From Candidatus Oxydemutatoraceae bacterium (GTDB lineage: Bacteria > Pseudomonadota > Gammaproteobacteria > Poriferisulfidales > Oxydemutatoraceae): a stretch of DNA of 64,000 bases. The stretch is taken from assembly GCA_965226235.1 (NCBI GenBank), contig OZ245335.1, forward strand, positions 1,066,375 to 1,130,374, written 5' to 3'. Position numbers and translations under genes: made by a program. The notes below the pieces were generated by a model. That model was not told where the DNA came from, ran no database searches, and saw only the letters and a list, made by a program, of their open reading frames with translations. Shown in pieces: positions 7,405-17,617 of the stretch (positions are counted from its first letter, which is position 1; each line of letters begins with the position of its first letter).

Positions 7405-9119
7405 TCAGCCTGGGCATACACGACGGGCATAACGCCACTGCCTGCCTGATAAAGGACGGGAAAATACTCGCCTGCGTCCCCGAAGAGCGTCTGACCAGAC
7501 AGAAAAACTGCTGTGGGATTCCGGTCAACGCGATCCGCGAATGCCTGGATGTCAGCGGCGTCAGCCCGGAAGAAATCAACGCCGTGGGCGTCGCCGGACT
7601 GATACCACCGGTCCACACCCTGCAGGAAATCACCAGCCCGAAAGGATTCAGGGGGATCTACAGCCACCTCTCCCCATTGCTTCCAAAATCCTTTCTGCGC
7701 TCCAGCAAGTGCGTGGATCTGGCGGTATCGATTCTGTCGAGGCTACGGGACAAAGAAGAAATCATGAAGGTCGTCAGGCAGACAGGCATCCAATCCGACG
7801 TCACTTTTTATGACCACCATACGCTGCACGCTCTGAGCGCTTACGGATGCTCTCCGTATTACCAGGAAGACGAAGATGTGCTGGTGCTTTCCTGCGACGG
7901 GGCCGGCGACGCCGTGTGCGCCACTGTAAACGTCGGCAGAAAGGGCAACATGAAACGCCTGCACAAAACCAGCCACTTCAATTCCCTTGGCGAGTTATAC
8001 GCCCGAACGACACAGTATCTTGGCATGGATCCGACTTCCGACGAATACAAGGTGATGGGACTTGCGGCCTATGCCAACCCGCGATACGCCGAACCGGCCT
8101 ACGACAAGATAAAGCACTGTATCAGCGTTGAAAAGGATGGATTCGGACTGCGAAACAACACCTCCTTCACCAAGTGGCGTTACCTGAAGTTTCTCGAGAA
8201 TACCTTCAAGGGCGACCGTTTCGACTGCGTCTCCTACGCGGTACAACGACTCACCGAAACCACGCTGGCAAACTGGGTCGGGAACGCCGTGCACAGAACC
8301 GGGCTCAAAAAGGTGGTCCTGTCGGGCGGCATCTTCATGAACGTAAAGGCAAATCACATTATCCTGTCGCTGCCGGAAATCGAAGAGTTGTGGGTGCTTC
8401 CCAGTTGCTCCGACGACTCCCTGTCGATCGGCGCAGCGATGCACGCAGCAATCGACCGCGGGGCGAATCGGTTCCACCCCCTCGAAACCCTGTACCTGGG
8501 CAGAAAATACAGCGCTGACGAAATCGAATCCTCCCTGAAAGATTGCCCGATAGCCCTTCAGGTGGAAAGAACCGACGACGTGGAAGTCAGGATCGGTAAG
8601 GAGCTGGCGCAAGGCAAAATCATCGCGAACTTTTCCGGACGCATGGAATGGGGATCCAGGGCACTGGGTAACCGTTCCATTCTCGCGGACCCTCGCGACA
8701 TGCGATCCATCAGCAGAATCAACAAAGCCATCAAGAAAAGAGAATTCTGGATGCCCTACTGCCCCAGCATCCTGGAAGAACGAGCCGACGATTATTTTAC
8801 GGCAATCAAAAACTACCGGGCACACTACATGGTCATGGCGTTTCCGACTTCAAGCCGCGCGCACGACGAAATCCCCGCCTGTATGCACGTCTATGACCGC
8901 ACGATCAGACCACAGCTCGTGTCAAAAGAATGGAACCCGAGGTATCACCGCGTAATCCGCTCCTTCGAAAACGAAACCGGCGTCGGATCGGTGCTGAATA
9001 CTTCCTTCAACCTGACCGGCTACCCCATCGTGCGCTCCCCCGAAGATGCACTCAGCGTATTCGCCGTGTCAGACCTCGACGCGGTCGTCATGGAAGACTT
9101 CTACGTCACAAAAAAATAG
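7401..9119 (+). CDS. Carbamoyltransferase (NodU/CmcH family)
   Basis: N-terminal ISLGIHDGHNATACL and family-wide similarity. It overlaps the upstream GT4 gene by 4 bp, so the two are likely an operon. Confidence 0.85.
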   Translation: MISLGIHDGHNATACLIKDGKILACVPEERLTRQKNCCGIPVNAIRECLDVSGVSPEEINAVGVAGLIPPVHTLQEITSPKGFRGIYSHLSPLLPKSFLRSSKCVDLAVSILSRLRDKEEIMKVVRQTGIQSDVTFYDHHTLHALSAYGCSPYYQEDEDVLVLSCDGAGDAVCATVNVGRKGNMKRLHKTSHFNSLGELYARTTQYLGMDPTSDEYKVMGLAAYANPRYAEPAYDKIKHCISVEKDGFGLRNNTSFTKWRYLKFLENTFKGDRFDCVSYAVQRLTETTLANWVGNAVHRTGLKKVVLSGGIFMNVKANHIILSLPEIEELWVLPSCSDDSLSIGAAMHAAIDRGANRFHPLETLYLGRKYSADEIESSLKDCPIALQVERTDDVEVRIGKELAQGKIIANFSGRMEWGSRALGNRSILADPRDMRSISRINKAIKKREFWMPYCPSILEERADDYFTAIKNYRAHYMVMAFPTSSRAHDEIPACMHVYDRTIRPQLVSKEWNPRYHRVIRSFENETGVGSVLNTSFNLTGYPIVRSPEDALSVFAVSDLDAVVMEDFYVTKK

Positions 9120-9564
9120 CGCCGCTGCCGATAAGAAAACTGCAGGCAAGCCGGCGCCGACAATGAAAATGGTGTTCGGCCATGCGTCTGCCATCACGAA
9201 AGCTGTTTCCAGTCTAGAAATCATCGGCGAATCGAGCTTTGCCCAGTGCTCTGCATGCATGGTCTGAAAAGGTTTCTCGCTTACAATCAAGGTCAGGCTC
9301 ACTAACCAAAGCTTGCATCGTATGACCCTGGAAAGACTGTATTTGTTGCATCAGATACTAACCCGGAAATTTCACCGATTTGTAATTTCGGCATAGATTC
9401 CCGTTGAGCAGCACTGATTTTTTGTCCTGGTACGTTCTCCATGCATCCGATCCCGTATCGGATGACTGTTATCGCCTGTCCGAGGGTATCCGGAGGGGTT
9501 GGCGCAGGCCAGCTACCTGGCGGATCCCGTGGGTTGTAAGGGCCATAAGCCCAAGATTTCTATT

Positions 9565-9573
9565 TGCTATAAT
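9565..9573 (+). promoter_or_regulatory. Extended -10 element TGcTATAAT on the plus strand. It could be the cas9-operon promoter, placing the anti-repeat in the cas9 5' leader.
   Basis: Perfect TGnTATAAT with no good -35. Comparable motifs are expected by chance at roughly this frequency in 64 kb. Confidence 0.3.
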
Positions 9574-9601
9574 AAAAAATGATCCCCCACTGGGAGGGAT
9601 C
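9571..9601 (-). terminator. Intrinsic terminator on the minus strand: stem-loop GATCCCTCCCAGTGGGGGATC followed by ATTTTTTATT
   Basis: An 8-bp GC-rich stem (one G-U pair), a 5-nt loop and a U-run, ~110 nt downstream of the predicted minus-strand start. Confidence 0.6.
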
Positions 9602-9680
9602 TGGTCGCATTGAAAGCGGCGCCTGCGAAGCCAATGGCTTCTTGGTATGAAAAGCCTGATAGGCCTTGGTCAGTTACACT
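9571..9680. ncRNA. tracrRNA: tracrRNA locus. The anti-repeat at 9658-9680 matches 23 nt of the CRISPR repeat with 1 mismatch, but the strand is unresolved. Minus strand: ~110-nt RNA with its own promoter and terminator. Plus strand: anti-repeat with canonical Cas9 geometry, but the tail overlaps the cas9 start.
   Basis: Plus strand 9658-9680 reads GATAGGCCTTGGTCAGTTACACT, the reverse complement of the first 23 nt of the repeat AGTGTAACTGACCAAGACCTATC apart from one mismatch. Promoter and terminator signals are listed as separate features. Confidence 0.55.
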
Positions 9681-9687
9681 GGCTGAG

Positions 9688-9716
9688 AATATAGCACGGG
9701 AGCGAGAGTGAGTCAA
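9688..9716 (-). promoter_or_regulatory. Sigma70-like promoter on the minus strand. The -35 TTGACT (9711-9716) and -10 TATATT (9688-9693) are separated by 17 bp, with the predicted start at 9680, the first base of the repeat-like segment. It overlaps the cas9 start codon in antisense.
   Basis: Hexamers and spacing read directly from the sequence. Confidence 0.5.
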
Positions 9717-12700
9717 AAGATTCTGGGACTGGATTTAGGAACCAATTCGGTTGGGTGGGCTTTGCTTGAGGGCAGAGGCGGCAAGCCACGGGAAATTATC
9801 GATGTCGGGGTTCGTATATTCAATGAAGCCATTGACAGCAAAAATAAAACACCGAAGAACGCGCAAAGAAGGCAGGCGCGTTTGGCAAGAAGGGTTTTAC
9901 AAAGACGAGCGCGCCGCAAGAGAAAAATGCTGTCTCTTCTGGTCAAGCAGGGGTTTTTGCCGCACAAGGCCCTGTCTTCGACCAACCTCGAAGGTATTTT
10001 GCATGAGCTTGGCGATCCTTATGAACTCAGGGCACGGGCACTGAATGACAGATTGTCTGAACACGAGTTGGGGCGCGTATTTTTTCATCTGGTACAAAGA
10101 CGGGGCTTCCTGAGCAACAAGAAAACGTTGTTGGGCGACATGGCCGATGACCCGGATGTAAAAGAAATACTGCAACAGGACGACAAACCTGATAACCAGA
10201 GCGATTCCGATGAGGAAAAAAAGAAGAATAAGGAAGAGAGTGAGTTCAAGCGGCATATATCCGAATTGAGAAACAAGATAGAAGCATCGGGTGCCAGAAC
10301 GCTGGGTGAGTATCTTCATAAGCATCGTAAAAACAACCTTAAACGCAATCGTTCTCATGCAGGCGAGTACGAGTATCTGAGAACAGATCGTCGCATGTAT
10401 CAGGAGGAGTTCGATAAGATCGTTAAAGCACAACGAAGATTGGGTGCCTCGTTACCTCAAGAGACTGTTGAGGCTGAGTTGCACAAGATCATATTTTTCC
10501 AGAGGCCTCTGAAATTCCGTTCCGATCGGGTAGGCAAATGCACCTTGGAACTTGGGAAAAACCGCGCGCGCATGGGGAGACTGGAGGCGCAGCGGTTCCG
10601 CTATTTGCAGGACATCAATCATCTGAAATATCGAGACATTGATGATTCTGAAAGGTCTGTAGGTGACAATGACCGGACGAAGTTGAAGGAATTGTTTGAG
10701 ACCGTTGAGAAGCCTACTTTCAGCAAAATAAAAAAAGTGCTGGGATTGAGCAAGGGGGTCAAGCTGAATCTGGAAGAGTATGGAACGAAAAAGCTGAAAG
10801 GCAACACGACTGCTTGCAGAATCAGAAAGGTTTATTCCGGGTGGGATGAGTTGAGCGCCGAGCAGCAAAAAAAGCTGGTTGAAGACCTGATTACGATCAA
10901 GAAAAAAAGCGTCTTGAAGAAACGCTTGATGAACCATTGGCGGTTCAGTAAGGAATCGACTGTCAATCTTTGTCTGATAGAGCTTGAGCCGGGGCATTCC
11001 AACCATAGCTTAAAGGCGATTGACAGAATATTGCCCTTCCTGGAGAAAGGGGAAATCTATTCCGACGCTCGGGAGAGTGCCGGGTATGGCTATGAGCAGG
11101 TGCAGCAAGATAGTCGGGAAACATTGGGAGAGCCGCCTGCAATACCCAACCCCATCGTCAGCAGGGGGCTCAGCGAGTTGCGCCGTGTAGTCAACGCCAT
11201 CATTGCCGAGTATGGCAAGCCCGATATCATCCGAATAGAAATGGCGCGTGATTTGGAAATGAACACTAAAAAGTACAAGCAGTATCAGAAGCAGATAAAC
11301 GCCAACTATAAAGCGAACGAGGAAGCGGCAGAAGAGTACGGGAAAGTAGCACGAGCCAACCCGCACTTGCGACTGAGAGACGAGGCTTCACGCGATGACA
11401 AAATTCGTTACCGGTTGTGGAAAGACCAGGATTGTCGATGCGTGTACAGCGGCCGGTCAATAGGGGGGCATGAGCTTTTCAGTCCCGAAGTGGAAATCGA
11501 CCATATCGTTCCCTATAGCCAATCACTGGATGATTCGTACATGAACAAGGTTGTTTGCCTGACGAAGGAAAATCGCTTCAAGGGACAGAGAACCCCAGTC
11601 GATGCGTTTGGTGGCAATGCAGAAAAGTGGCAGCAAATACGAGGAACGATAGAGAAATGGGGGAAGCCGTTGGCATCCAAGAAGAATCGTTTCTATTTGA
11701 CTGCTGAACAGGTAGAGCAAAGGGGGTTTGCTTCAAGACAGTTGAATGATACGCGTTATATCAGCAAGGAAGCGCAGGAGTATGTGCGTCAGTTGGGCGC
11801 GGATGTAAGTGTTACCAAGGGAGCTACCGTTGCCTTGCTCAGACGTCAGTGGGGGTTGAATCGTATTTTGTCTTCCGATGGTGGAAAGAATCGGGCAGAT
11901 CATCGGCATCATGCTGTTGACGCGGTTGTCATCGCGTCGATAGATCGCGGGATCCACCAAAGGCTCGTAAAAAGCGCACAGGAAGTCGAGCGGCAAGGAA
12001 GTGAGCTTGCCACGCGCAGGCTGGTGCTGGATATGCCTTATCCCGAGTTGAGGGATGAAATCGAGGACAAGTTAAACCGAGTTATTGTGTCGCATGATCC
12101 GCAGCGTAAGGTTTCCGGGGCTCTACACAAGGGTAAGGGGCTGGGCTTCAAAAAAGGGATTGGCTTGATCACCAGAAAGCATCTTGACAGTGAAATTACG
12201 TCTAAGCAGGTAAAAAATATTGTCGATCCGGTTGTCCGGGGTCAAGTCGAGGATCATCTTATGCAATATGGCGGCTCGCCAAAGATCGCATTTGCCGAGG
12301 ATGTTATTGTGCGGCATAAGAATGGCAGGACGCCGATCAGGCGAGTACGGGTTGTTCAGTCCAAAACGACGTTCGAAAAGCTTGAGAGTGGTAAGTACAG
12401 CAAGTTTGGCGTGAAAAATAAAGATGGTGAGGTTTTTAAGTGGATGGATTATGGCAACACTCATCACGTCGAAATTCTCCAGAGCAAAAAGGATACGGGT
12501 AAAATCAAGGGCGAGTTCGTTACCACAATGGAGGCAGCGAAAAGGGCAAGAAGAAACAGAACTCGGTCATTGGTCAGAACCGATCATGGAGAAGAATGGA
12601 GGCTCTTGATGGTGTTGCACATAAACAACCTGGTGAGTGTGAAGGTGAACGATTGCAGACAGATTTACAGAGTGCAGAAGCTTAGTAAAACCAGGAACAG

Positions 12701-12842
12701 CATAACCCTGAGGCTGCATACGGCGGCGACGCTGGAAAACAAGGATGAAAAAGGGATCGAGTTGAGAATCAACCCAGAGAATTTTGAGAAACATAAGCCG
12801 AAGTTGTTGCAGGTTAACGCGATTGGAAAATTATTGTCGTGA
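9708..12842 (+). CDS. cas9: Cas9, type II-C size class (1044 aa), GTG start
   Basis: N-terminal RuvC-I ILGLDLGTNSVGWA, HNH motif EIDHIVPYSQSLDDSYMNKVVCLTKENRFKGQRTP and RuvC-III HHAVDAVVIA. A GGGAG Shine-Dalgarno lies 7 nt upstream of the GTG. It overlaps cas1 by 4 bp. Confidence 0.95.
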   Translation: MSQKILGLDLGTNSVGWALLEGRGGKPREIIDVGVRIFNEAIDSKNKTPKNAQRRQARLARRVLQRRARRKRKMLSLLVKQGFLPHKALSSTNLEGILHELGDPYELRARALNDRLSEHELGRVFFHLVQRRGFLSNKKTLLGDMADDPDVKEILQQDDKPDNQSDSDEEKKKNKEESEFKRHISELRNKIEASGARTLGEYLHKHRKNNLKRNRSHAGEYEYLRTDRRMYQEEFDKIVKAQRRLGASLPQETVEAELHKIIFFQRPLKFRSDRVGKCTLELGKNRARMGRLEAQRFRYLQDINHLKYRDIDDSERSVGDNDRTKLKELFETVEKPTFSKIKKVLGLSKGVKLNLEEYGTKKLKGNTTACRIRKVYSGWDELSAEQQKKLVEDLITIKKKSVLKKRLMNHWRFSKESTVNLCLIELEPGHSNHSLKAIDRILPFLEKGEIYSDARESAGYGYEQVQQDSRETLGEPPAIPNPIVSRGLSELRRVVNAIIAEYGKPDIIRIEMARDLEMNTKKYKQYQKQINANYKANEEAAEEYGKVARANPHLRLRDEASRDDKIRYRLWKDQDCRCVYSGRSIGGHELFSPEVEIDHIVPYSQSLDDSYMNKVVCLTKENRFKGQRTPVDAFGGNAEKWQQIRGTIEKWGKPLASKKNRFYLTAEQVEQRGFASRQLNDTRYISKEAQEYVRQLGADVSVTKGATVALLRRQWGLNRILSSDGGKNRADHRHHAVDAVVIASIDRGIHQRLVKSAQEVERQGSELATRRLVLDMPYPELRDEIEDKLNRVIVSHDPQRKVSGALHKGKGLGFKKGIGLITRKHLDSEITSKQVKNIVDPVVRGQVEDHLMQYGGSPKIAFAEDVIVRHKNGRTPIRRVRVVQSKTTFEKLESGKYSKFGVKNKDGEVFKWMDYGNTHHVEILQSKKDTGKIKGEFVTTMEAAKRARRNRTRSLVRTDHGEEWRLLMVLHINNLVSVKVNDCRQIYRVQKLSKTRNSITLRLHTAATLENKDEKGIELRINPENFEKHKPKLLQVNAIGKLLS

Positions 12843-13738
12843 TAAAACGTGTCGTCGATGTAAGCAGCGCCAGCACGTTAAGGCTGGAGAACAAACAACT
12901 GGTCATTGAACAGGGCTTTTCTCAAGCAGCGAGAGTGTCACTGGAAGATTTGGGCATCCTGATACTGCAACACCCTGCGATCACTATTACTCAACCTGTC
13001 TTGAGAGAATGCCAAAGAAATAATGCTGCTGTCGTTTTGTGCGATGAACGCCACCTGCCTACATCGGTTATTCTGCCCTTGATGACGGGGAACTCTCTGC
13101 ATAGCAAAATCATCAGGCAGCAGATGGCAGCCAGCAAATCAAGGGAAAAAAGGGTTTGGCAACAGATTATAAGACACAAGATACGTGCTCAGATCAGGCT
13201 ACTGGCAAGACAAGAGAAGCCTACGAAAGCGCTGGAGTTGCTTTTTCAGAGAGTCAGGTCAGGAGATCCGGACAACTGTGAGGCTCAGGCCGCGCAAAAA
13301 TACTGGCCCCTGTTGTTTGGTTCCGGCTTTCGCCGGAACCAAACGGCCGACGGGATGAACGCATTGTTGAACTACGGTTATGCGATTATGCGAGCGATGT
13401 TAGCCAGAGCTGTTGTGGGCGCAGGACTGCATCCCGCATTGGGTGTGCACCATAGGAACCAGTATAACGGCCTGAATTTGGCTGACGACTTGATGGAACC
13501 TCTTAGGCCTTGGGTTGACGAAGTAGTCCTGAAACTAGCTGGAGAGAACAACCTGACTGTCAATCGTGAATCCAAGAAATGTCTGTTGGCGCTACTTTTT
13601 TCCCTAGTGATATGGAAGAAGAAATCCTTGCCCTTGATGTCCTGTAGTCATAGCCTGGTGGCTGATTTCAAGAGAATGCTGGGTGGAGACCAATCCTTTT
13701 TTGATTATCCGGTGTTATCAGAGGGTTCGGTGCAATAA
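12839..13738 (+). CDS. cas1: Cas1 integrase
   Basis: NALLNYGYAIMRA...GVHHRNQYNGLNLADDLMEPLRP motifs with conserved acidic and His residues. The length (299 aa) is typical of type II Cas1. Confidence 0.93.
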   Translation: MIKRVVDVSSASTLRLENKQLVIEQGFSQAARVSLEDLGILILQHPAITITQPVLRECQRNNAAVVLCDERHLPTSVILPLMTGNSLHSKIIRQQMAASKSREKRVWQQIIRHKIRAQIRLLARQEKPTKALELLFQRVRSGDPDNCEAQAAQKYWPLLFGSGFRRNQTADGMNALLNYGYAIMRAMLARAVVGAGLHPALGVHHRNQYNGLNLADDLMEPLRPWVDEVVLKLAGENNLTVNRESKKCLLALLFSLVIWKKKSLPLMSCSHSLVADFKRMLGGDQSFFDYPVLSEGSVQ

Positions 13739-13886
13739 ATTTACCGAATAGCCAAATGGCAGATTATTAAAGAGAACGAGGAGGGCACTTCGGCAAGGCT
13801 ATTCGCCGATCGCGTACGACACGGAGCCATCCGTCGTATAACGGATTTCCTGCTTCTACAGAGCGCCGACGTTTCAAGCAGAAAAA

Positions 13887-14216
13887 ATGGCTTTTGGTGG
13901 CCTAAATACTTTGTGGCTAATCGTGCTATTTGATTTACCTACGGATACCAAGACAGCACGTAAAAGGTACGTAAATTTCCGAAAGCACTTGCTTTCGGAC
14001 GGTTTTACGATGATGCAGTATTCGGTTTACATGCGACATAGCGCCAGTGAGGAAAACGCTCAGGTGCACCGTAACCGTGTCAAACAGTTTTTACCGCCTG
14101 AGGGAGAGGTCCGGATGATCAAGATCACCGACAAGCAGTTTTCAAAAATAGAGGTTTTCTACGGCAAAAAACGTGTTCCTATTGAACCAGCCCCCAGCCA
14201 ATTGCAATTACTCTGA
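13887..14216 (+). CDS. cas2: Cas2
   Basis: LIVLFDLPTDTKTARKRYVNFRKHLLSDGFTMMQYSVY closely resembles type II Cas2 (FDMPTDT...RKFLL...QFSVY). Confidence 0.9.
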   Translation: MAFGGLNTLWLIVLFDLPTDTKTARKRYVNFRKHLLSDGFTMMQYSVYMRHSASEENAQVHRNRVKQFLPPEGEVRMIKITDKQFSKIEVFYGKKRVPIEPAPSQLQLL

Positions 14217-14264
14217 ACGAACTTCTACCAAAAGTTCTTTATTTTCAATGCGTTGTGTTGGGAA

Positions 14265-15435
14265 TAGTGTAACTGACCAAGACCTATCCGCAAATCACAA
14301 TCCCATTCAGCCGACATATAGAATACGTCCGCGAGTGTAACTGACCAAGACCTATCCGCAAATCACAATACGTATTACGGTGTAGGGTGAGTCGGATAAG
14401 AGTGTAACTGACCAAGACCTATCCGCAAATCACAATTGCCGAAGCTGCCTGTTGATAAATTCAGAGAGTGTAACTGACCAAGACCTATCCGCAAATCACA
14501 ATGCCCGTGGGGGCCGGTCCAGTCTGCTGACAAGTGTAACTGACCAAGACCTATCCGCAAATCACAATCGTTCACCCTGCGTGGCTCATCGTACCTGTAG
14601 TGTAACTGACCAAGACCTATCCGCAAATCACAATCAGTGGGTAGACTGGCATGAAAGGCAAAACTATAGTGTAACTGACCAAGACCTATCCGCAAATCAC
14701 AATCAGCGTAACCTTGAGCCCGCGTTCGCCTCCGAGTGTAACTGACCAAGACCTATCCGCAAATCACAATAGGCAAGAGATAGACCGCCTGATCGGAGAA
14801 AGTGTAACTGACCAAGACCTATCCGCAAATCACAATCCGGATTCAAGCGAGTCTCTATCGACAAACAGTGTAACTGACCAAGACCTATCCGCAAATCACA
14901 ATCCGTAGTCCCGCCAACCAATATAGACTTGCAGTGTAACTGACCAAGACCTATCCGCAAATCACAATAGTTCGGTGATTGGTGGGCTTAGGGTGAAAAG
15001 TGTAACTGACCAAGACCTATCCGCAAATCACAATTCAGATGGCAACTGCGAGATATGCGCAAAAGTGTAACTGACCAAGACCTATCCGCAAATCACAATC
15101 GGTGCTGACAACGCATGCCTGCCACACGTAGTGTAACTGACCAAGACCTATCCGCAAATCACAATCTTAATGTGGTAGCAAATCATCCCTTCCCTTAGTG
15201 TAACTGACCAAGACCTATCCGCAAATCACAATCATGGCGTGCTTTACGATCTCACGCGGATAAGTGTAACTGACCAAGACCTATCCGCAAATCACAATGA
15301 AGCTGTAACTGCTGCACTTCAGATGGCGGGATAAGTGTAACTGACCAAGACCTATCCGCAAATCACAATTCGATCTCTGTTGCCTCAACAAGCACGGTCA
15401 AGTGTAACTGACCAAGACCTATCCGCAAATCACAA
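14265..15435. CRISPR. CRISPR array of 18 identical 36-bp repeats (AGTGTAACTGACCAAGACCTATCCGCAAATCACAAT) and 17 spacers of 29-35 bp, mostly 30. Only the last base of the last repeat differs (T to C).
   Basis: Repeats counted directly, with starts at 14265, 14333, 14400, 14466 ... 15400. The transcribed strand is not determinable from sequence alone. Confidence 0.97.
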
Positions 15436-15499
15436 CCGTCTTTAGCCACGGTGTATCGACCATGAAGCCAGGCGGGACTTTATCCAAGAGTGGTTTCAA

Positions 15500-15645
15500 T
15501 CTTTGTGTTCTTTGATGGTACATAGCCATTAAACTATTATATATTCAAAATATGTTCAAAGGATTTTTTAGTTCTTGTGCATATACATGGTCTATTGCCA
15601 TTCAAATCAATGCAATTCAAAATCAGGATACGGATGATTCAATCA
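15500..15645. promoter_or_regulatory. AT-rich leader-like block abutting the cas-distal end of the array, with four TTCAAA-containing direct motifs
   Basis: A strongly AT-rich ~150 bp containing tattcaaaat, tgttcaaagg, cattcaaatc and aattcaaaat. No ORFs lie here. Confidence 0.35.
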
Positions 15646-16135
15646 CTCGAGAGCGAGCGCAATATACAAGGCAGGAGGATCGCGCGTTTGGCCCGAACGT
15701 GGCGGCTTTAACGGGCCAAGTCATCTGAGCGGCGGGCAGGCTGTCGACGACGAAGACAACATGAGCTGGTGCGGCCGACGTGGACTACCGGGTCAGGACC
15801 CGTACATCAATGCATCGATCCGGTCGGCGATCTTTTGTGCGGATTCTCGAAATTTCTCGACAGTCCAGCCGGCCACCTAGCCTTCGGTAACACCGTTAAG
15901 CCGAGCATGGTTGGCGAGGCGTTTGGTGAGCGAGGGATGCAGCATTAGTTCTTGCTCGGCGGCGGTGATAAAGCAGTTCCACAACATTCCCTGCAACTCT
16001 TTTTGCATGAGCATTTCAGTTCCATTTTGTTCCCACTCATTCTCACTTTTGCCAGTAAGGTGTGAGATCAAATCGAAAACTACTAAAGATCCGCCAATTT
16101 TCAGTAAAGGGATACAGTTCATCCAAATACCTAAC

Positions 16136-17617
16136 CTACCGCAAACCAGAAAGCACCTCGCGAAAACTGTTGAGACCAGCTTCAAGGTTCTCAATGATCT
16201 CTTCGGCAAGATCGTTAGGCTCGGGCAGGTTGTCCAGATCGGTCAGGTTCTTGTCCTTGAGCCAGAAGATGTCCAGGCTGGTCTTGCCGCGCGCGCTGAT
16301 CTCCTCGTAGCTGTAGCTGCGCCAACGGCCTTCCGGTGCGTCCTTTTCGTCATAGGTCGCCTTGCGCTGATGTCGGTTCTGCGGGTTGTAGCAGTTGATG
16401 AAGTCCGACAGATCCTCGAAGCGCATCGGCTTCTTCTTCAGCGTATGGTGAATGTTGGTGCGGTAGTCGTAGTACCAGACCTGCTTTGTCCAGGGATTCG
16501 GGTTGGCTTCGTGGTTGTCGAAGAAGATCACATTGGCCTTGACTCCTTGCGCGTAAAACACGCCGGTCGGCAAGCGTAGGATGGTGTGCAGGTCCGTGTT
16601 GTCCAGCAGCTTCTTGCGGATCGTTTCACCGGCACCGCCTTCAAACAGCACGTTGTCGGGAACGACGACGGCAGCGCGGCCAGTGGTCTTGAGCAGCGTG
16701 CGGATGTGCTGCACGAAATTTAGCTGCTTGTTCGAGGTCGTCGCCCAGAAATCCTGCCGGTTATAGGTCAGGTCGTCGGTTTCCTGCTCGCCTTCCTCGT
16801 TCGTGAAGCTCATGGAGCTTTTCTTGCCGAAGGGCGGGTTCGCCAGCACATAGTCAAAGCGCCTTCCGGCATCGGCCACGAGCGAATCGTTTGGCAATAT
16901 GGGCACGCCGCCGTCGATCTCGCCGATGTTGTGCAGGAACATGTTCATCAGACACAGACGGCGTGTATTGGCGACGATCTCGTTGCCGTGAAACGCCTTG
17001 TGCTTCAGGAACGCCTTCTGCTTCTTGTCTAGGTTGAAGTTGTCCGGGTTGGTCATGAAGTCGTAGGCGGCGAGAAAGAAACCGCCCGTACCGCAGGCCG
17101 GGTCGGCGATGAGCGTACCCGGTTCGGGCCGTACGCATTCGACCATGGCGCGGATGAGAGCGCGGGGCGTGAAATACTGGCCGGCACCTGATTTGGTGTC
17201 TTCGGCATTCCGCTCCAGCAGGCCTTCGTAGATGTCGCCCTTGATATCCGCGCCCATGGTGACCCACTCTGTGTCGTCCACCATGTCGATGAGGCGGAAC
17301 AGCTTTGCCGGGTCTTGAATCTTGTTCTGGGCCTTGGTGAAGATATGGCCCAGCATGTCCTTCTTCGTACCGAGTTCACGCAGCAGAGCGATATAGTGGT
17401 TTTCGAGCTCCGCACCCCGCCTTGCTTTCAGGGTCTGCCAGTTGAATTTGGCTGGGATACCGACATCGCGGTTGTACGGGGGGTTGGCGTACTCGCCGGC
17501 CATCTTGAGGAAGATCAGATAGGTGAGTTGCTCCAGGTAGTCGCCATAGCTCACCCCGTCATCGCGCAGGGTGGTGCAGAAGCTCCAGACTTTGGAGACG
17601 ATGGGAGCGGTGTTCAT
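16136..17617 (-). CDS. hsdM: Type I restriction-modification N6-adenine methyltransferase subunit HsdM
   Basis: HsdM N-terminal domain and the LANPPFG catalytic motif. The reading frame is intact. Confidence 0.9.
   Translation of the reverse strand: MNTAPIVSKVWSFCTTLRDDGVSYGDYLEQLTYLIFLKMAGEYANPPYNRDVGIPAKFNWQTLKARRGAELENHYIALLRELGTKKDMLGHIFTKAQNKIQDPAKLFRLIDMVDDTEWVTMGADIKGDIYEGLLERNAEDTKSGAGQYFTPRALIRAMVECVRPEPGTLIADPACGTGGFFLAAYDFMTNPDNFNLDKKQKAFLKHKAFHGNEIVANTRRLCLMNMFLHNIGEIDGGVPILPNDSLVADAGRRFDYVLANPPFGKKSSMSFTNEEGEQETDDLTYNRQDFWATTSNKQLNFVQHIRTLLKTTGRAAVVVPDNVLFEGGAGETIRKKLLDNTDLHTILRLPTGVFYAQGVKANVIFFDNHEANPNPWTKQVWYYDYRTNIHHTLKKKPMRFEDLSDFINCYNPQNRHQRKATYDEKDAPEGRWRSYSYEEISARGKTSLDIFWLKDKNLTDLDNLPEPNDLAEEIIENLEAGLNSFREVLSGLR

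Follow-up and report, generated by a model that had tools for sequence, protein, structure and literature searches.

Organization of the CRISPR-Cas9 locus

The window (the whole stretch of 64 kb analyzed here) harbors a CRISPR-Cas9 locus with the gene order cas9-cas1-cas2-array, located downstream of a carbamoyltransferase gene. The locus belongs to type II-C, as its operon is the minimal cas9-cas1-cas2 set without csn2 or cas4. The array lies only 49 nt from cas2. The main features are as follows.

9708-12842, plus strand: cas9, 1044 aa, GTG start, N-terminus VSQKILGLDLGTNSVGW; NCBIfam TIGR01865, 665 bits
12839-13738, plus strand: cas1; NCBIfam cas1_NMENI (type II), 275 bits
13887-14216, plus strand: cas2; NCBIfam TIGR01573
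14266-15436, minus strand as the inferred crRNA sense: CRISPR array of 18 repeats of 36 nt and 17 spacers of 29-35 nt

The best PDB sequence matches of the Cas9 were 9ar4, 8jtj, 8uza/8uzb and 6jdq (E = 4e-83 to 6e-68), which we take to be GeoCas9 or NmeCas9 (the PDB table gives no organisms). These solved compact Cas9s belong to the same family, TIGR01865, but match the window Cas9 only distantly in sequence and are slightly longer (1082-1095 aa, i.e., about 1080-1095, versus 1044 aa).

A predicted minus-strand RNA upstream of cas9 carries the only anti-repeat

Immediately upstream of cas9, plus-strand positions 9658-9680 match the reverse complement of the repeat, bases 1-23 in the cas9-strand reading, with 1 mismatch. 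As the original prediction had stated, this match is unique: outside the 18 array repeats it is the only one in the window, where chance would give 0. For the other half of the repeat, no second match stands out in the window. The anti-repeat is part of a predicted transcription unit on the minus strand, with the following elements.

9571-9680, minus strand: putative tracrRNA gene, ~110 nt, supported by promoter and terminator scan, cofolding with the repeat and homologues in 41 related loci
9688-9716, minus strand: predicted tracrRNA promoter, TTGACT-17-TATATT
9658-9680, minus strand: anti-repeat, upper stem; tracrRNA nt 1-23, pairing with nt 14-36 of the minus-sense repeat
9644-9657, minus strand: anti-repeat, lower part; tracrRNA nt 24-37, from cofolding with the repeat
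9627-9643, minus strand: AA junction (9643-9642) and nexus GAAGCC-AUU-GGCUUC (9641-9627)
9603-9626, minus strand: second hairpin, G58,G59 with C77,C78 enclosing CGC/GCG, loop UUUCAAU (consensus structure)
9571-9601, minus strand: intrinsic terminator, 8-bp stem GAUCCCUC/GGGGGAUC (9601 to 9581), then AUUUUUUAUU
9565-9573, plus strand: extended -10 TGCTATAAT, candidate cas9 promoter

Scanning recovered both signals that had been proposed for a minus-strand RNA: the promoter, which matches the consensus at 10/12 positions and has a TG before its -10, and the terminator, an 8-bp stem (9601 to 9581) followed by ATTTTTTATT. A promoter and terminator flanking the anti-repeat in this way were found on the minus strand only. 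Shuffled sequences, suggested earlier as a control that might weaken these signals, scored lower, with 0.8 promoter-like sites against 2 in the region and 0.9 terminator-like sites against 3. The 5' end of the RNA is predicted near 9680 and its 3' end within the U-run at 9580-9571. The -35 TTGACT (9716-9711) overlaps cas9 codons 2-3, the extended -10 reads TGcTATATT (9696-9688), and the cas9 Shine-Dalgarno sequence GGGAG (9698-9702) sits between the two hexamers. From the anti-repeat to the cas9 GTG there are 27 nt, Shine-Dalgarno sequence included.

No Rfam covariance model matched at 9000-16200 even at E <= 10 (one chance match fell elsewhere), and this absence from Rfam has no bearing on tracrRNA function. 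When the literature was searched for the sequence of repeat or tracrRNA, a single sponge-symbiont paper came up, which lists a similar repeat, unanalysed.

The repeat:anti-repeat duplex extends to the spacer-proximal end

The original prediction had confined pairing of a minus-strand RNA to the spacer-distal 23 nt of the repeat. Cofolding revealed that pairing instead reaches the spacer-proximal end, albeit imperfectly: in the minus sense the repeat reads AUUGUGAUUUGCGG...UUACACU, and the ~110-nt minus-strand RNA pairs along it. The lone "mismatch" of the upper stem is a wobble, G17.U20. Below it, an AG bulge is followed by GC paired with repeat G11 and C12 and by a UUU/UUU internal loop, after which UCAUA pairs with repeat U3-A7 in a lower stem of 5 bp, one of them G.U, that adjoins the spacer. 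Repeat nt 3-7 thus pair with tracrRNA nt 31-35, which is the canonical polarity. The tracrRNA CC faces repeat A1 and U2, and these two nucleotides are unpaired in the window; a G1-C pair is present in 30 of 31 aligned sequences. The anti-repeat combines a 23-nt match unique in the window with a duplex over the full 36 nt, as expected of a tracrRNA.

A perfect-match search finds the upper stem only, and therefore created a false register problem. The proposal that array and tracrRNA might both be read on the minus strand held for the strands but not for the "non-canonical duplex register" attached to it, as the lower stem adjoins the guide and is followed by the AA junction and nexus. Cofolding in both orientations, one of the checks proposed at the outset, favored the minus sense, with a duplex dG of -47.7 kcal/mol versus -39.0 kcal/mol for the plus-sense mirror in slightly different windows; a matched 52-nt plus-sense mirror gave -38.3 kcal/mol. 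On the plus strand, two wobbles (the lone "mismatch" and one lower-stem pair) turn from G.U into A.C.

A tracrRNA-like scaffold follows the anti-repeat

In type II systems an A or AA junction precedes the nexus, a stem-loop that lies 1-3 nt past the hybrid and whose stem starts with G (PMC6546382), and the predicted nexus here fits the published II-C rules (PMC6546382). Among 19 distinct hairpins of the family, the junction is AA or AAU and the stem base G-C, with compensatory variants from A-U to G-C and from C-G to U-A. One of the hairpins listed earlier, GAAGCC-AUU-GGCUUC, stands as the nexus, while "AGGCUU...AAGCC" turned out to be the lower-stem part of the anti-repeat. A third, "CGCA...UGCG", gave way to the family consensus for the second hairpin, GG/CC plus CGC/GCG. 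The stem of this hairpin differs yet still pairs in loci L004 (AACC/GGUU) and L064 (CCCC/GGGG). In the Rho-independent terminator at the 3' end, compensatory changes were found at 4/7 aligned pairs. Folding z scores over 9571-9643 were -2.2 for the minus and -2.9 for the plus strand; since the hairpins are symmetric, folding of the single sequence is uninformative on strand.

Repeat and minus-strand RNA co-vary in related loci

Of the related loci, 41 offer both an array and the upstream region, and every one of these has an anti-repeat just upstream of cas9 and on the opposite strand, although their Cas9s are only 32-56% identical to that of the window. These loci include 35 distinct tracrRNAs; duplex strength was compared over 36 distinct loci, and covariation was analyzed on 31 distinct repeat-tracrRNA fusions. 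The block GCUUUUCAUACC-AA(U)-nexus-hairpin-terminator is common to the window and 29/35 distinct tracrRNAs, with a variant of this block in L004 and L064; four outgroups (L005, L007, L009 and L074) share the architecture with a different sequence. The -10 boxes occupy the same offset, and the spacing between tracrRNA and cas9 start is 25-33 nt in 32/35 loci.

In the 31 distinct fusions, 97.4% of cells pair, versus 34-42% with slid partners, and both-sided changes occurred at 22 pairs, versus 3-7 when slid; none of 500 shuffles reached the observed values. Compensatory changes affect 16 of the 23 upper-stem pairs, i.e., the anti-repeat co-evolves with its cognate repeat. The original prediction had proposed to ask which strand's structure is conserved by compensatory changes; it is that of the minus-strand RNA. 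The lower stem is invariant within this 31-sequence subfamily, so that its covariation rests on more distant loci, where stems differ but remain complementary (L004/L064, L005 and L007/L009). Sequence changed and complementarity was kept in L004 (GUUGUGAAUAG/CUAUUCAUAAC), L005 (GCUAUGUU/AACAUAGU) and L007 (GUUGCGG/CCGUUAAC). Pairing starts from repeat nt 1, next to the spacer, in 35/35 distinct related loci, L074 and L077 included, and in 34 of 36 distinct loci stability favors the minus-sense duplex. The near-identical strain L084 shows 2 differences in 631 aligned bases; as both lie outside the tracrRNA gene, this comparison was uninformative.

The array is probably read opposite to cas9

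From the strand of the tracrRNA, the asymmetry of the wobbles and the family pattern GUUG...TAnAnT, we infer that the functional (crRNA) sense of the array is the minus strand, reading AUUGUGAUUUGCGGAUAGGUCUUGGUCAGUUACACU. In this sense, family repeats run from GUUG to 3' ends such as TACACT, TAGACT, TATACT, TACAAT and TATAAT, which resemble the promoters carried within the repeats of Neisseria-type II-C arrays (PMC12080349). The -10-like TACACT that ends the window repeat is weak and lacks a TG, and a consensus promoter scan over the array found nothing above shuffles on either strand. The sole deviant repeat (15401-15436) differs at its outermost base and would be transcribed first in the minus sense. 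This agrees with the rule for II-C arrays by which the repeat in first position, the oldest or "extra" one, tends to be mutated (PMC12080349). In a PAM-side test of array orientation, none of the 17 window spacers matched 50,697 phage records, nor did two spacers, searched as exact 26-mers, match IMG/VR.

The strand conflict seen in the original prediction arose because the array was assumed to be read on the cas9 strand, an assumption known to fail for type II-C (PMC3737331): in N. meningitidis and C. jejuni, it is experimentally established that arrays are read opposite to the cas operon (PMC3737331). Given the imperfect spacer-proximal pairing in the minus sense, the conflict disappears.

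Alternative explanations

The minus-strand RNA might be a repeat-mimicking regulator (scaRNA-like or cr-like), the true tracrRNA being located elsewhere or missing. In type II-C, 76% of loci contain standalone repeat-like units (PMC10120712), and relative to a plus-sense array the RNA would have the sense of the repeat. However, it carries a full-length anti-repeat followed by a complete tracrRNA scaffold (AA junction, nexus and terminator), there is no room for a guide between its predicted 5' end and the repeat-like part, and it co-varies with the repeat across the 31 distinct loci. Moreover, Cas9 needs a tracrRNA, and the 64 kb contain no other anti-repeat or repeat-like sequence. We consider a regulator of this kind very improbable; scaRNA-like and tracr-L-like readings were rejected for want of a guide segment and of a second anti-repeat.

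Scarcely credible, in our judgment, is a plus-strand tracrRNA that would start near TGcTATAAT (9565-9573) and run into the cas9 leader, with the array read in the plus sense (guide-AGUGUAACUGACC...). The original prediction had offered it together with a repeat-mimicking antisense RNA on the other strand. All conserved structure (nexus, second hairpin and U-tract terminator) lies on the 3' side of the minus-strand RNA, whereas the plus-strand RNA would have no terminator, nexus or hairpins 3' of the anti-repeat, with just 27 nt, including the Shine-Dalgarno sequence, left before the GTG. Folding of this plus-strand RNA over 9658-9770 is at the level of shuffles (z = 0.04). It is true that the 23-nt match, in perfect register, would then adjoin the guide, but the plus-sense duplex is the weaker one in 34/36 loci, its wobbles becoming A.C mismatches. 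Likewise, the extended -10 is real and rare, but it is not conserved in relatives.

Just as implausible is a decayed remnant, e.g., the degenerate end repeat of an array since lost, with promoter and terminator by chance: the promoter and terminator scans are consensus matches only and degenerate repeats are the presumed origin of tracrRNAs (PMC3737331), but 41 loci with Cas9s 32-56% identical keep the same RNA in the same position, and because compensatory changes track each locus's own repeat, they point to purifying selection on pairing rather than decay.

Transcription of cas9 and a possible antisense leader

The plus-strand extended -10 noted originally at 9565-9573 is one of 2 TGNTATAAT sites in 64 kb, where 0.59 are expected. 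It may be a candidate promoter of cas9 rather than of a tracrRNA. As the tracrRNA promoter coincides in part with both the ribosome-binding site and the start codon of cas9, the cas9 mRNA would have to start further upstream and be antisense to the tracrRNA gene over its full length, its likely start in the window being this extended -10. Alternatively, cas9 might be transcribed from a symmetric bidirectional promoter, with a start near 9699, or by read-through from the carbamoyltransferase gene. No conserved plus-strand promoter was evident beyond the tracrRNA terminator in relatives (mean score 4.85 versus 4.65 on the opposite strand, 10 loci versus 8). That the cas9 mRNA is antisense to the tracrRNA, with levels coupled by transcriptional interference or by RNase III cleavage of the duplex, is a speculative idea that we regard as rather unlikely. 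If true, the cas9 5' UTR would be perfectly complementary to the tracrRNA over ~125 nt, and 18 nt ahead of the Shine-Dalgarno sequence it would contain a segment resembling the repeat. We know of no cis-antisense autoregulatory circuit of this kind described for type II-C.

Discussion

Very probably, 9571-9680 on the minus strand is the tracrRNA gene of this type II-C locus, an ordinary one with canonical guide geometry. The tracrRNA would be transcribed divergently from cas9, from the extended -10 promoter to the intrinsic terminator, and the array would be used in the minus sense too, presumably from -10-like boxes at repeat ends as in Neisseria and Campylobacter, giving crRNAs of the form 5'-guide-AUUGUGAUUUGCGG...-3'. 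The 5' 37 nt of the tracrRNA would pair with the entire repeat, forming, in order from the guide, the 5-bp lower stem, the UUU/UUU loop, two G-C pairs, a small bulge and the 23-bp upper stem. AA junction, nexus, second hairpin and terminator hairpin would serve as the scaffold for Cas9 binding, with loading and processing presumably following.

Type II-C loci of Neisseria meningitidis and Campylobacter jejuni have the same minimal set of cas9, cas1 and cas2 in an operon, and likewise an array of 36-nt repeats after it. Their tracrRNA genes lie downstream of cas9, whereas the gene described here is located immediately upstream, with its promoter over the ribosome-binding site and start codon. 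They also share the repeat start (G/A)UUGU and the -10-like TAnAnT end; in contrast, the putative repeat-borne promoter here has no TG extension at its -10. Further similarities are the common sense of tracrRNA and, here probably, array opposite to cas9 (PMC3737331), mutation of the oldest, "extra" repeat, with which transcription of the array would start (PMC12080349), and a full-length anti-repeat with intrinsic terminator, AA junction and G-based nexus (PMC6546382). In sequence, the RNAs are unrelated.

In S. pyogenes (type II-A), the tracrRNA gene is likewise upstream of cas9 on the opposite strand, but much farther from it than the 27 nt found here. II-A arrays are read on the cas9 strand, and a long-form tracrRNA (tracr-L) with a built-in guide against the cas9 promoter mediates autoregulation in S. 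pyogenes; no such long form is evident here.

Canonical type II guide RNAs consist of lower stem, bulge, upper stem, nexus and terminator (Faure et al. 2018, PMC6546382). All of these modules are predicted here in canonical order and polarity, and the duplex dG of -47.7 kcal/mol is inside the reported II-C/II-A range (PMC6546382). Differences are that the stem is interrupted by a symmetric UUU/UUU loop plus a second small bulge, and that the first two repeat nucleotides are unpaired in the window, whereas the first is paired in 96% of published dual guides (PMC6546382).

With this assignment, the guide RNA of the 1044-aa Cas9 can be written, as a crRNA guide followed by AUUGUGAUUUGCGG... and the tracrRNA 9680-9571 (minus), or in fused sgRNA form as guide-AUUGUGAUUUGCGGAUAGG-GAAA-CCUAUCAGGCUUUUCAUACCAAGAAGCC...UUUU. 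Guide RNAs can be written likewise for about 40 marine and sediment relatives, which would be useful for testing compact Cas9s. For scans of other genomes, the locus is a caution that type II-C arrays usually run opposite to cas9 and that the anti-repeat is imperfect near the spacer. Arrays and tracrRNAs read against the direction of cas9 have documented precedents within type II-C, in Neisseria and Campylobacter, and the general understanding of Cas9 systems is unchanged.

Minus-strand tracrRNA signals upstream of cas9

In the window, cas9 is followed by cas1, cas2 and a CRISPR array and preceded by a predicted tracrRNA gene on the opposite strand.

Features of the CRISPR-Cas locus
9571-9680, minus strand: tracrRNA gene, ~110 nt, ends predicted
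9708-12842, plus strand: cas9, GTG start, 1044 aa, N-terminus VSQKILGLDLGTNSVGW; NCBIfam TIGR01865, 665 bits
12839-13738, plus strand: cas1 (cas1_NMENI)
13887-14216, plus strand: cas2
14266-15436: CRISPR array, 18 repeats of 36 nt, downstream of the cas genes

Since csn2 and cas4 were absent from the locus, its layout is that of type II-C. The gene upstream of cas9 encodes an unrelated carbamoyltransferase. The 450-nt gap between this gene and the tracrRNA terminator (9120-9570) had no convincing open reading frame and no Rfam match; it contained an 8-bp hairpin (CATCCGAT-CCCGT-ATCGGATG, about 9445-9465) and a minus-strand terminator-like site (9307..9291).

Apart from one mismatch, plus-strand positions 9658-9680 are the reverse complement of bases 1 to 23 of the repeat (read on the cas9 strand). 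This was the sole anti-repeat match outside the array, with none expected by chance, and no second copy of the other repeat half was convincing. Scans of the minus strand recovered a promoter with a TG extension (TTGACT-17-TATATT, 10/12, 9716..9688) and a terminator with an 8-bp stem (9601..9581) followed by ATTTTTTATT. A second minus-strand promoter-like site lies within cas9 at 9795-9823 (TTGAAT-17-GATAAT, 9/12). An RNA started there would be a long form of the tracrRNA, lying antisense to the beginning of cas9, but the site may be a chance occurrence (2 sites in the region versus 0.8 expected).

The original prediction had read these signals, together with a plus-strand extended −10, as a strand conflict, on the grounds that pairing of the minus-strand RNA could extend over no more than the 23 spacer-distal nt of the repeat. 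All of the signals were present as described, but the conflict dissolves, because cofolding showed that the minus-sense RNA pairs along the entire repeat. We conclude that 9571-9680 is very probably an ordinary type II-C tracrRNA gene.

Repeat:tracrRNA pairing

When the minus-sense repeat AUUGUGAUUUGCGGAUAGGUCUUGGUCAGUUACACU was cofolded with the minus-strand RNA, tracrRNA nt 1-23 paired with repeat nt 14-36 in the upper (spacer-distal) stem, the "mismatch" being a G.U wobble. An AG bulge lies opposite repeat G13, C27/G26 of the tracrRNA pair with repeat G11/C12, and U28-U30 face repeat U8-U10 in an internal loop, followed by a lower (spacer-proximal) stem of U31-A35 with repeat U3-A7, including one G.U. 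This duplex reached −47.7 kcal/mol versus −39.0 for the plus-sense mirror, in windows of differing length; a matched 52-nt mirror duplex gave −38.3 kcal/mol. In the mirror, the minus-sense wobbles become A.C mismatches. The anti-repeat is followed 3′ by an AA junction, a nexus-type hairpin (GAAGCC-AUU-GGCUUC), a second hairpin and the terminator. Type II guide RNAs are ordered as lower stem, bulge, upper stem, nexus and terminator, and in type II-C the junction is A or AA and the nexus stem begins with G (PMC6546382); the window RNA has the identical module order and follows both II-C rules.

Window repeats begin with A in the crRNA sense (e.g., 14301 and 14369), whereas 30/31 aligned family sequences have a G, which pairs with tracrRNA C37. 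Because A1 replaces this G1, repeat nt 1 and 2 are unpaired and the window's lower stem is only 5 bp.

Covariation in related loci

Cas9 relatives (32 to 56% identity to the window's Cas9) comprised 9 loci from one-genome-per-species contigs and 74 from metagenomes. An anti-repeat immediately 5′ of cas9, on the strand opposite to it, was present in all 41 loci having both an array and upstream sequence. Of the 35 distinct related tracrRNAs, 29 continue from the anti-repeat into a conserved block, GCUUUUCAUACC-AA(U)-hairpin-CG(U/C)AGG...terminator, and the window RNA clearly belongs with them. Loci L004 and L064 had a variant of the block; L005, L007, L009 and L074 kept the architecture with a different sequence.

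We aligned 31 distinct pairs, each a minus-sense repeat joined to its own-locus tracrRNA by a GAAA linker. RNAalifold recovered the duplex of repeat and anti-repeat over its full length, as well as hairpin 2 and the terminator. Paired cells amounted to 97.4%, versus 34 to 42% when partners were slid by 1 to 3 columns, and 22 base pairs had changed on both sides, versus 3 to 7 when slid; none of 500 shuffles reached the observed values. The lower stem was invariant within these 31 pairs; in more distant loci its sequence was altered with complementarity kept (GUUGUGAAUAG/CUAUUCAUAAC in L004, GCUAUGUU/AACAUAGU in L005, GUUGCGG/CCGUUAAC in L007 and L009). The minus-sense duplex was the more stable in 34 of 36 distinct loci, and the spacer-adjacent repeat nucleotide was paired in 35/35 relatives. 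The nexus hairpin was conserved in position and in its G-C base, with A-U replaced by G-C and C-G by U-A within the family; the window's is the longest and most G+C rich.

Three loci (L019, L039 and L063) carry a ~12-nt insertion lengthening the terminator hairpin (e.g., AGUUAAGACUUAAG), so this module tolerates insertions. In L006, whose contig had no detectable array, a 38-nt sequence (TGGGAGGCGCTTCGCTTGACCTCATCGGCTACACGCAC, 9709-9746) is present in two copies immediately 5′ of cas9, which may reflect duplication of part of a tracrRNA.

Array orientation

In the minus sense, family repeats read GUUG...TAnAnT (3′ ends TACACT, TAGACT, TATACT, TACAAT and TATAAT). They thus resemble classical II-C repeats, and their 3′ ends recall the −10 boxes that Neisseria and Campylobacter repeats carry. 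Array transcription opposite to the cas operon has been demonstrated experimentally in N. meningitidis and C. jejuni (PMC3737331). In type II-C, new spacers are inserted at the repeat transcribed last; the one transcribed first is the oldest, an "extra" and frequently mutated repeat (PMC12080349). The sole deviant window repeat is 15401-15436, which differs at a single position, its outermost base. This is a plus-strand C and hence G1 in the crRNA sense, the family consensus, and the remaining 17 repeats have A1. The window fits the II-C pattern, with the first repeat oldest and new spacers at the cas2-proximal end. We infer minus-strand transcription of the array. A consensus scan found no array promoter on either strand, and a PAM-side orientation test found no protospacers for the window spacers.

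On metagenome contig L068, a 28-repeat array of the family (295-330 onward) lies upstream of cas9 and reads GTTGTGATTTGCAG... on the cas9 strand, so that both its position and its direction are the reverse of those in every other locus.

Plus-strand alternative and candidate cas9 promoters

A plus-strand tracrRNA continuing into cas9 would leave only 27 nt, containing the Shine-Dalgarno sequence (SD), before the cas9 GTG and would lack a terminator, and the plus-strand RNA at 9658-9770 was no more stably folded than shuffled sequences (z = 0.04). Over the hairpin region, the strands were not separated by single-sequence z-scores, an expected outcome when stems are symmetric. The signals that do depend on strand, namely the U-tract, promoter, wobble pairs and module order, all favor the minus strand.

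The minus-strand tracrRNA promoter (9681-9716) overlaps the cas9 translation start. Its −35 hexamer coincides with cas9 codons 2 and 3 (TTGACT is AGT CAA reverse-complemented; most relatives have TTGCTC, from AGC AA), and the cas9 SD lies between the −35 and −10. The two genes therefore have no space between them for a cas9 promoter of conventional type. In 32/35 loci, 25 to 33 nt separated the tracrRNA 5′ end from the start codon of cas9. A plausible cas9 promoter is the perfect extended −10 TGCTATAAT (plus strand, 9565-9573) just outside the tracrRNA terminator; the 64 kb contain two TGNTATAAT sites, of which this is one. Plus-strand −10 elements were not enriched at the equivalent place in relatives, and a near-identical strain was uninformative on this question. 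Alternatively, cas9 could be transcribed from a symmetric bidirectional −10 (plus-strand TGaGAATAT, 9684-9692; leader of about 9 nt) or by read-through from upstream. Transcription from 9565-9573 would give cas9 a leader antisense to the whole tracrRNA. The placement of the cas9 promoter is a regulatory question, not an anomaly of guide geometry. The window tracrRNA, which had no Rfam match, belongs to an uncurated family found widely across marine and sediment metagenomes.
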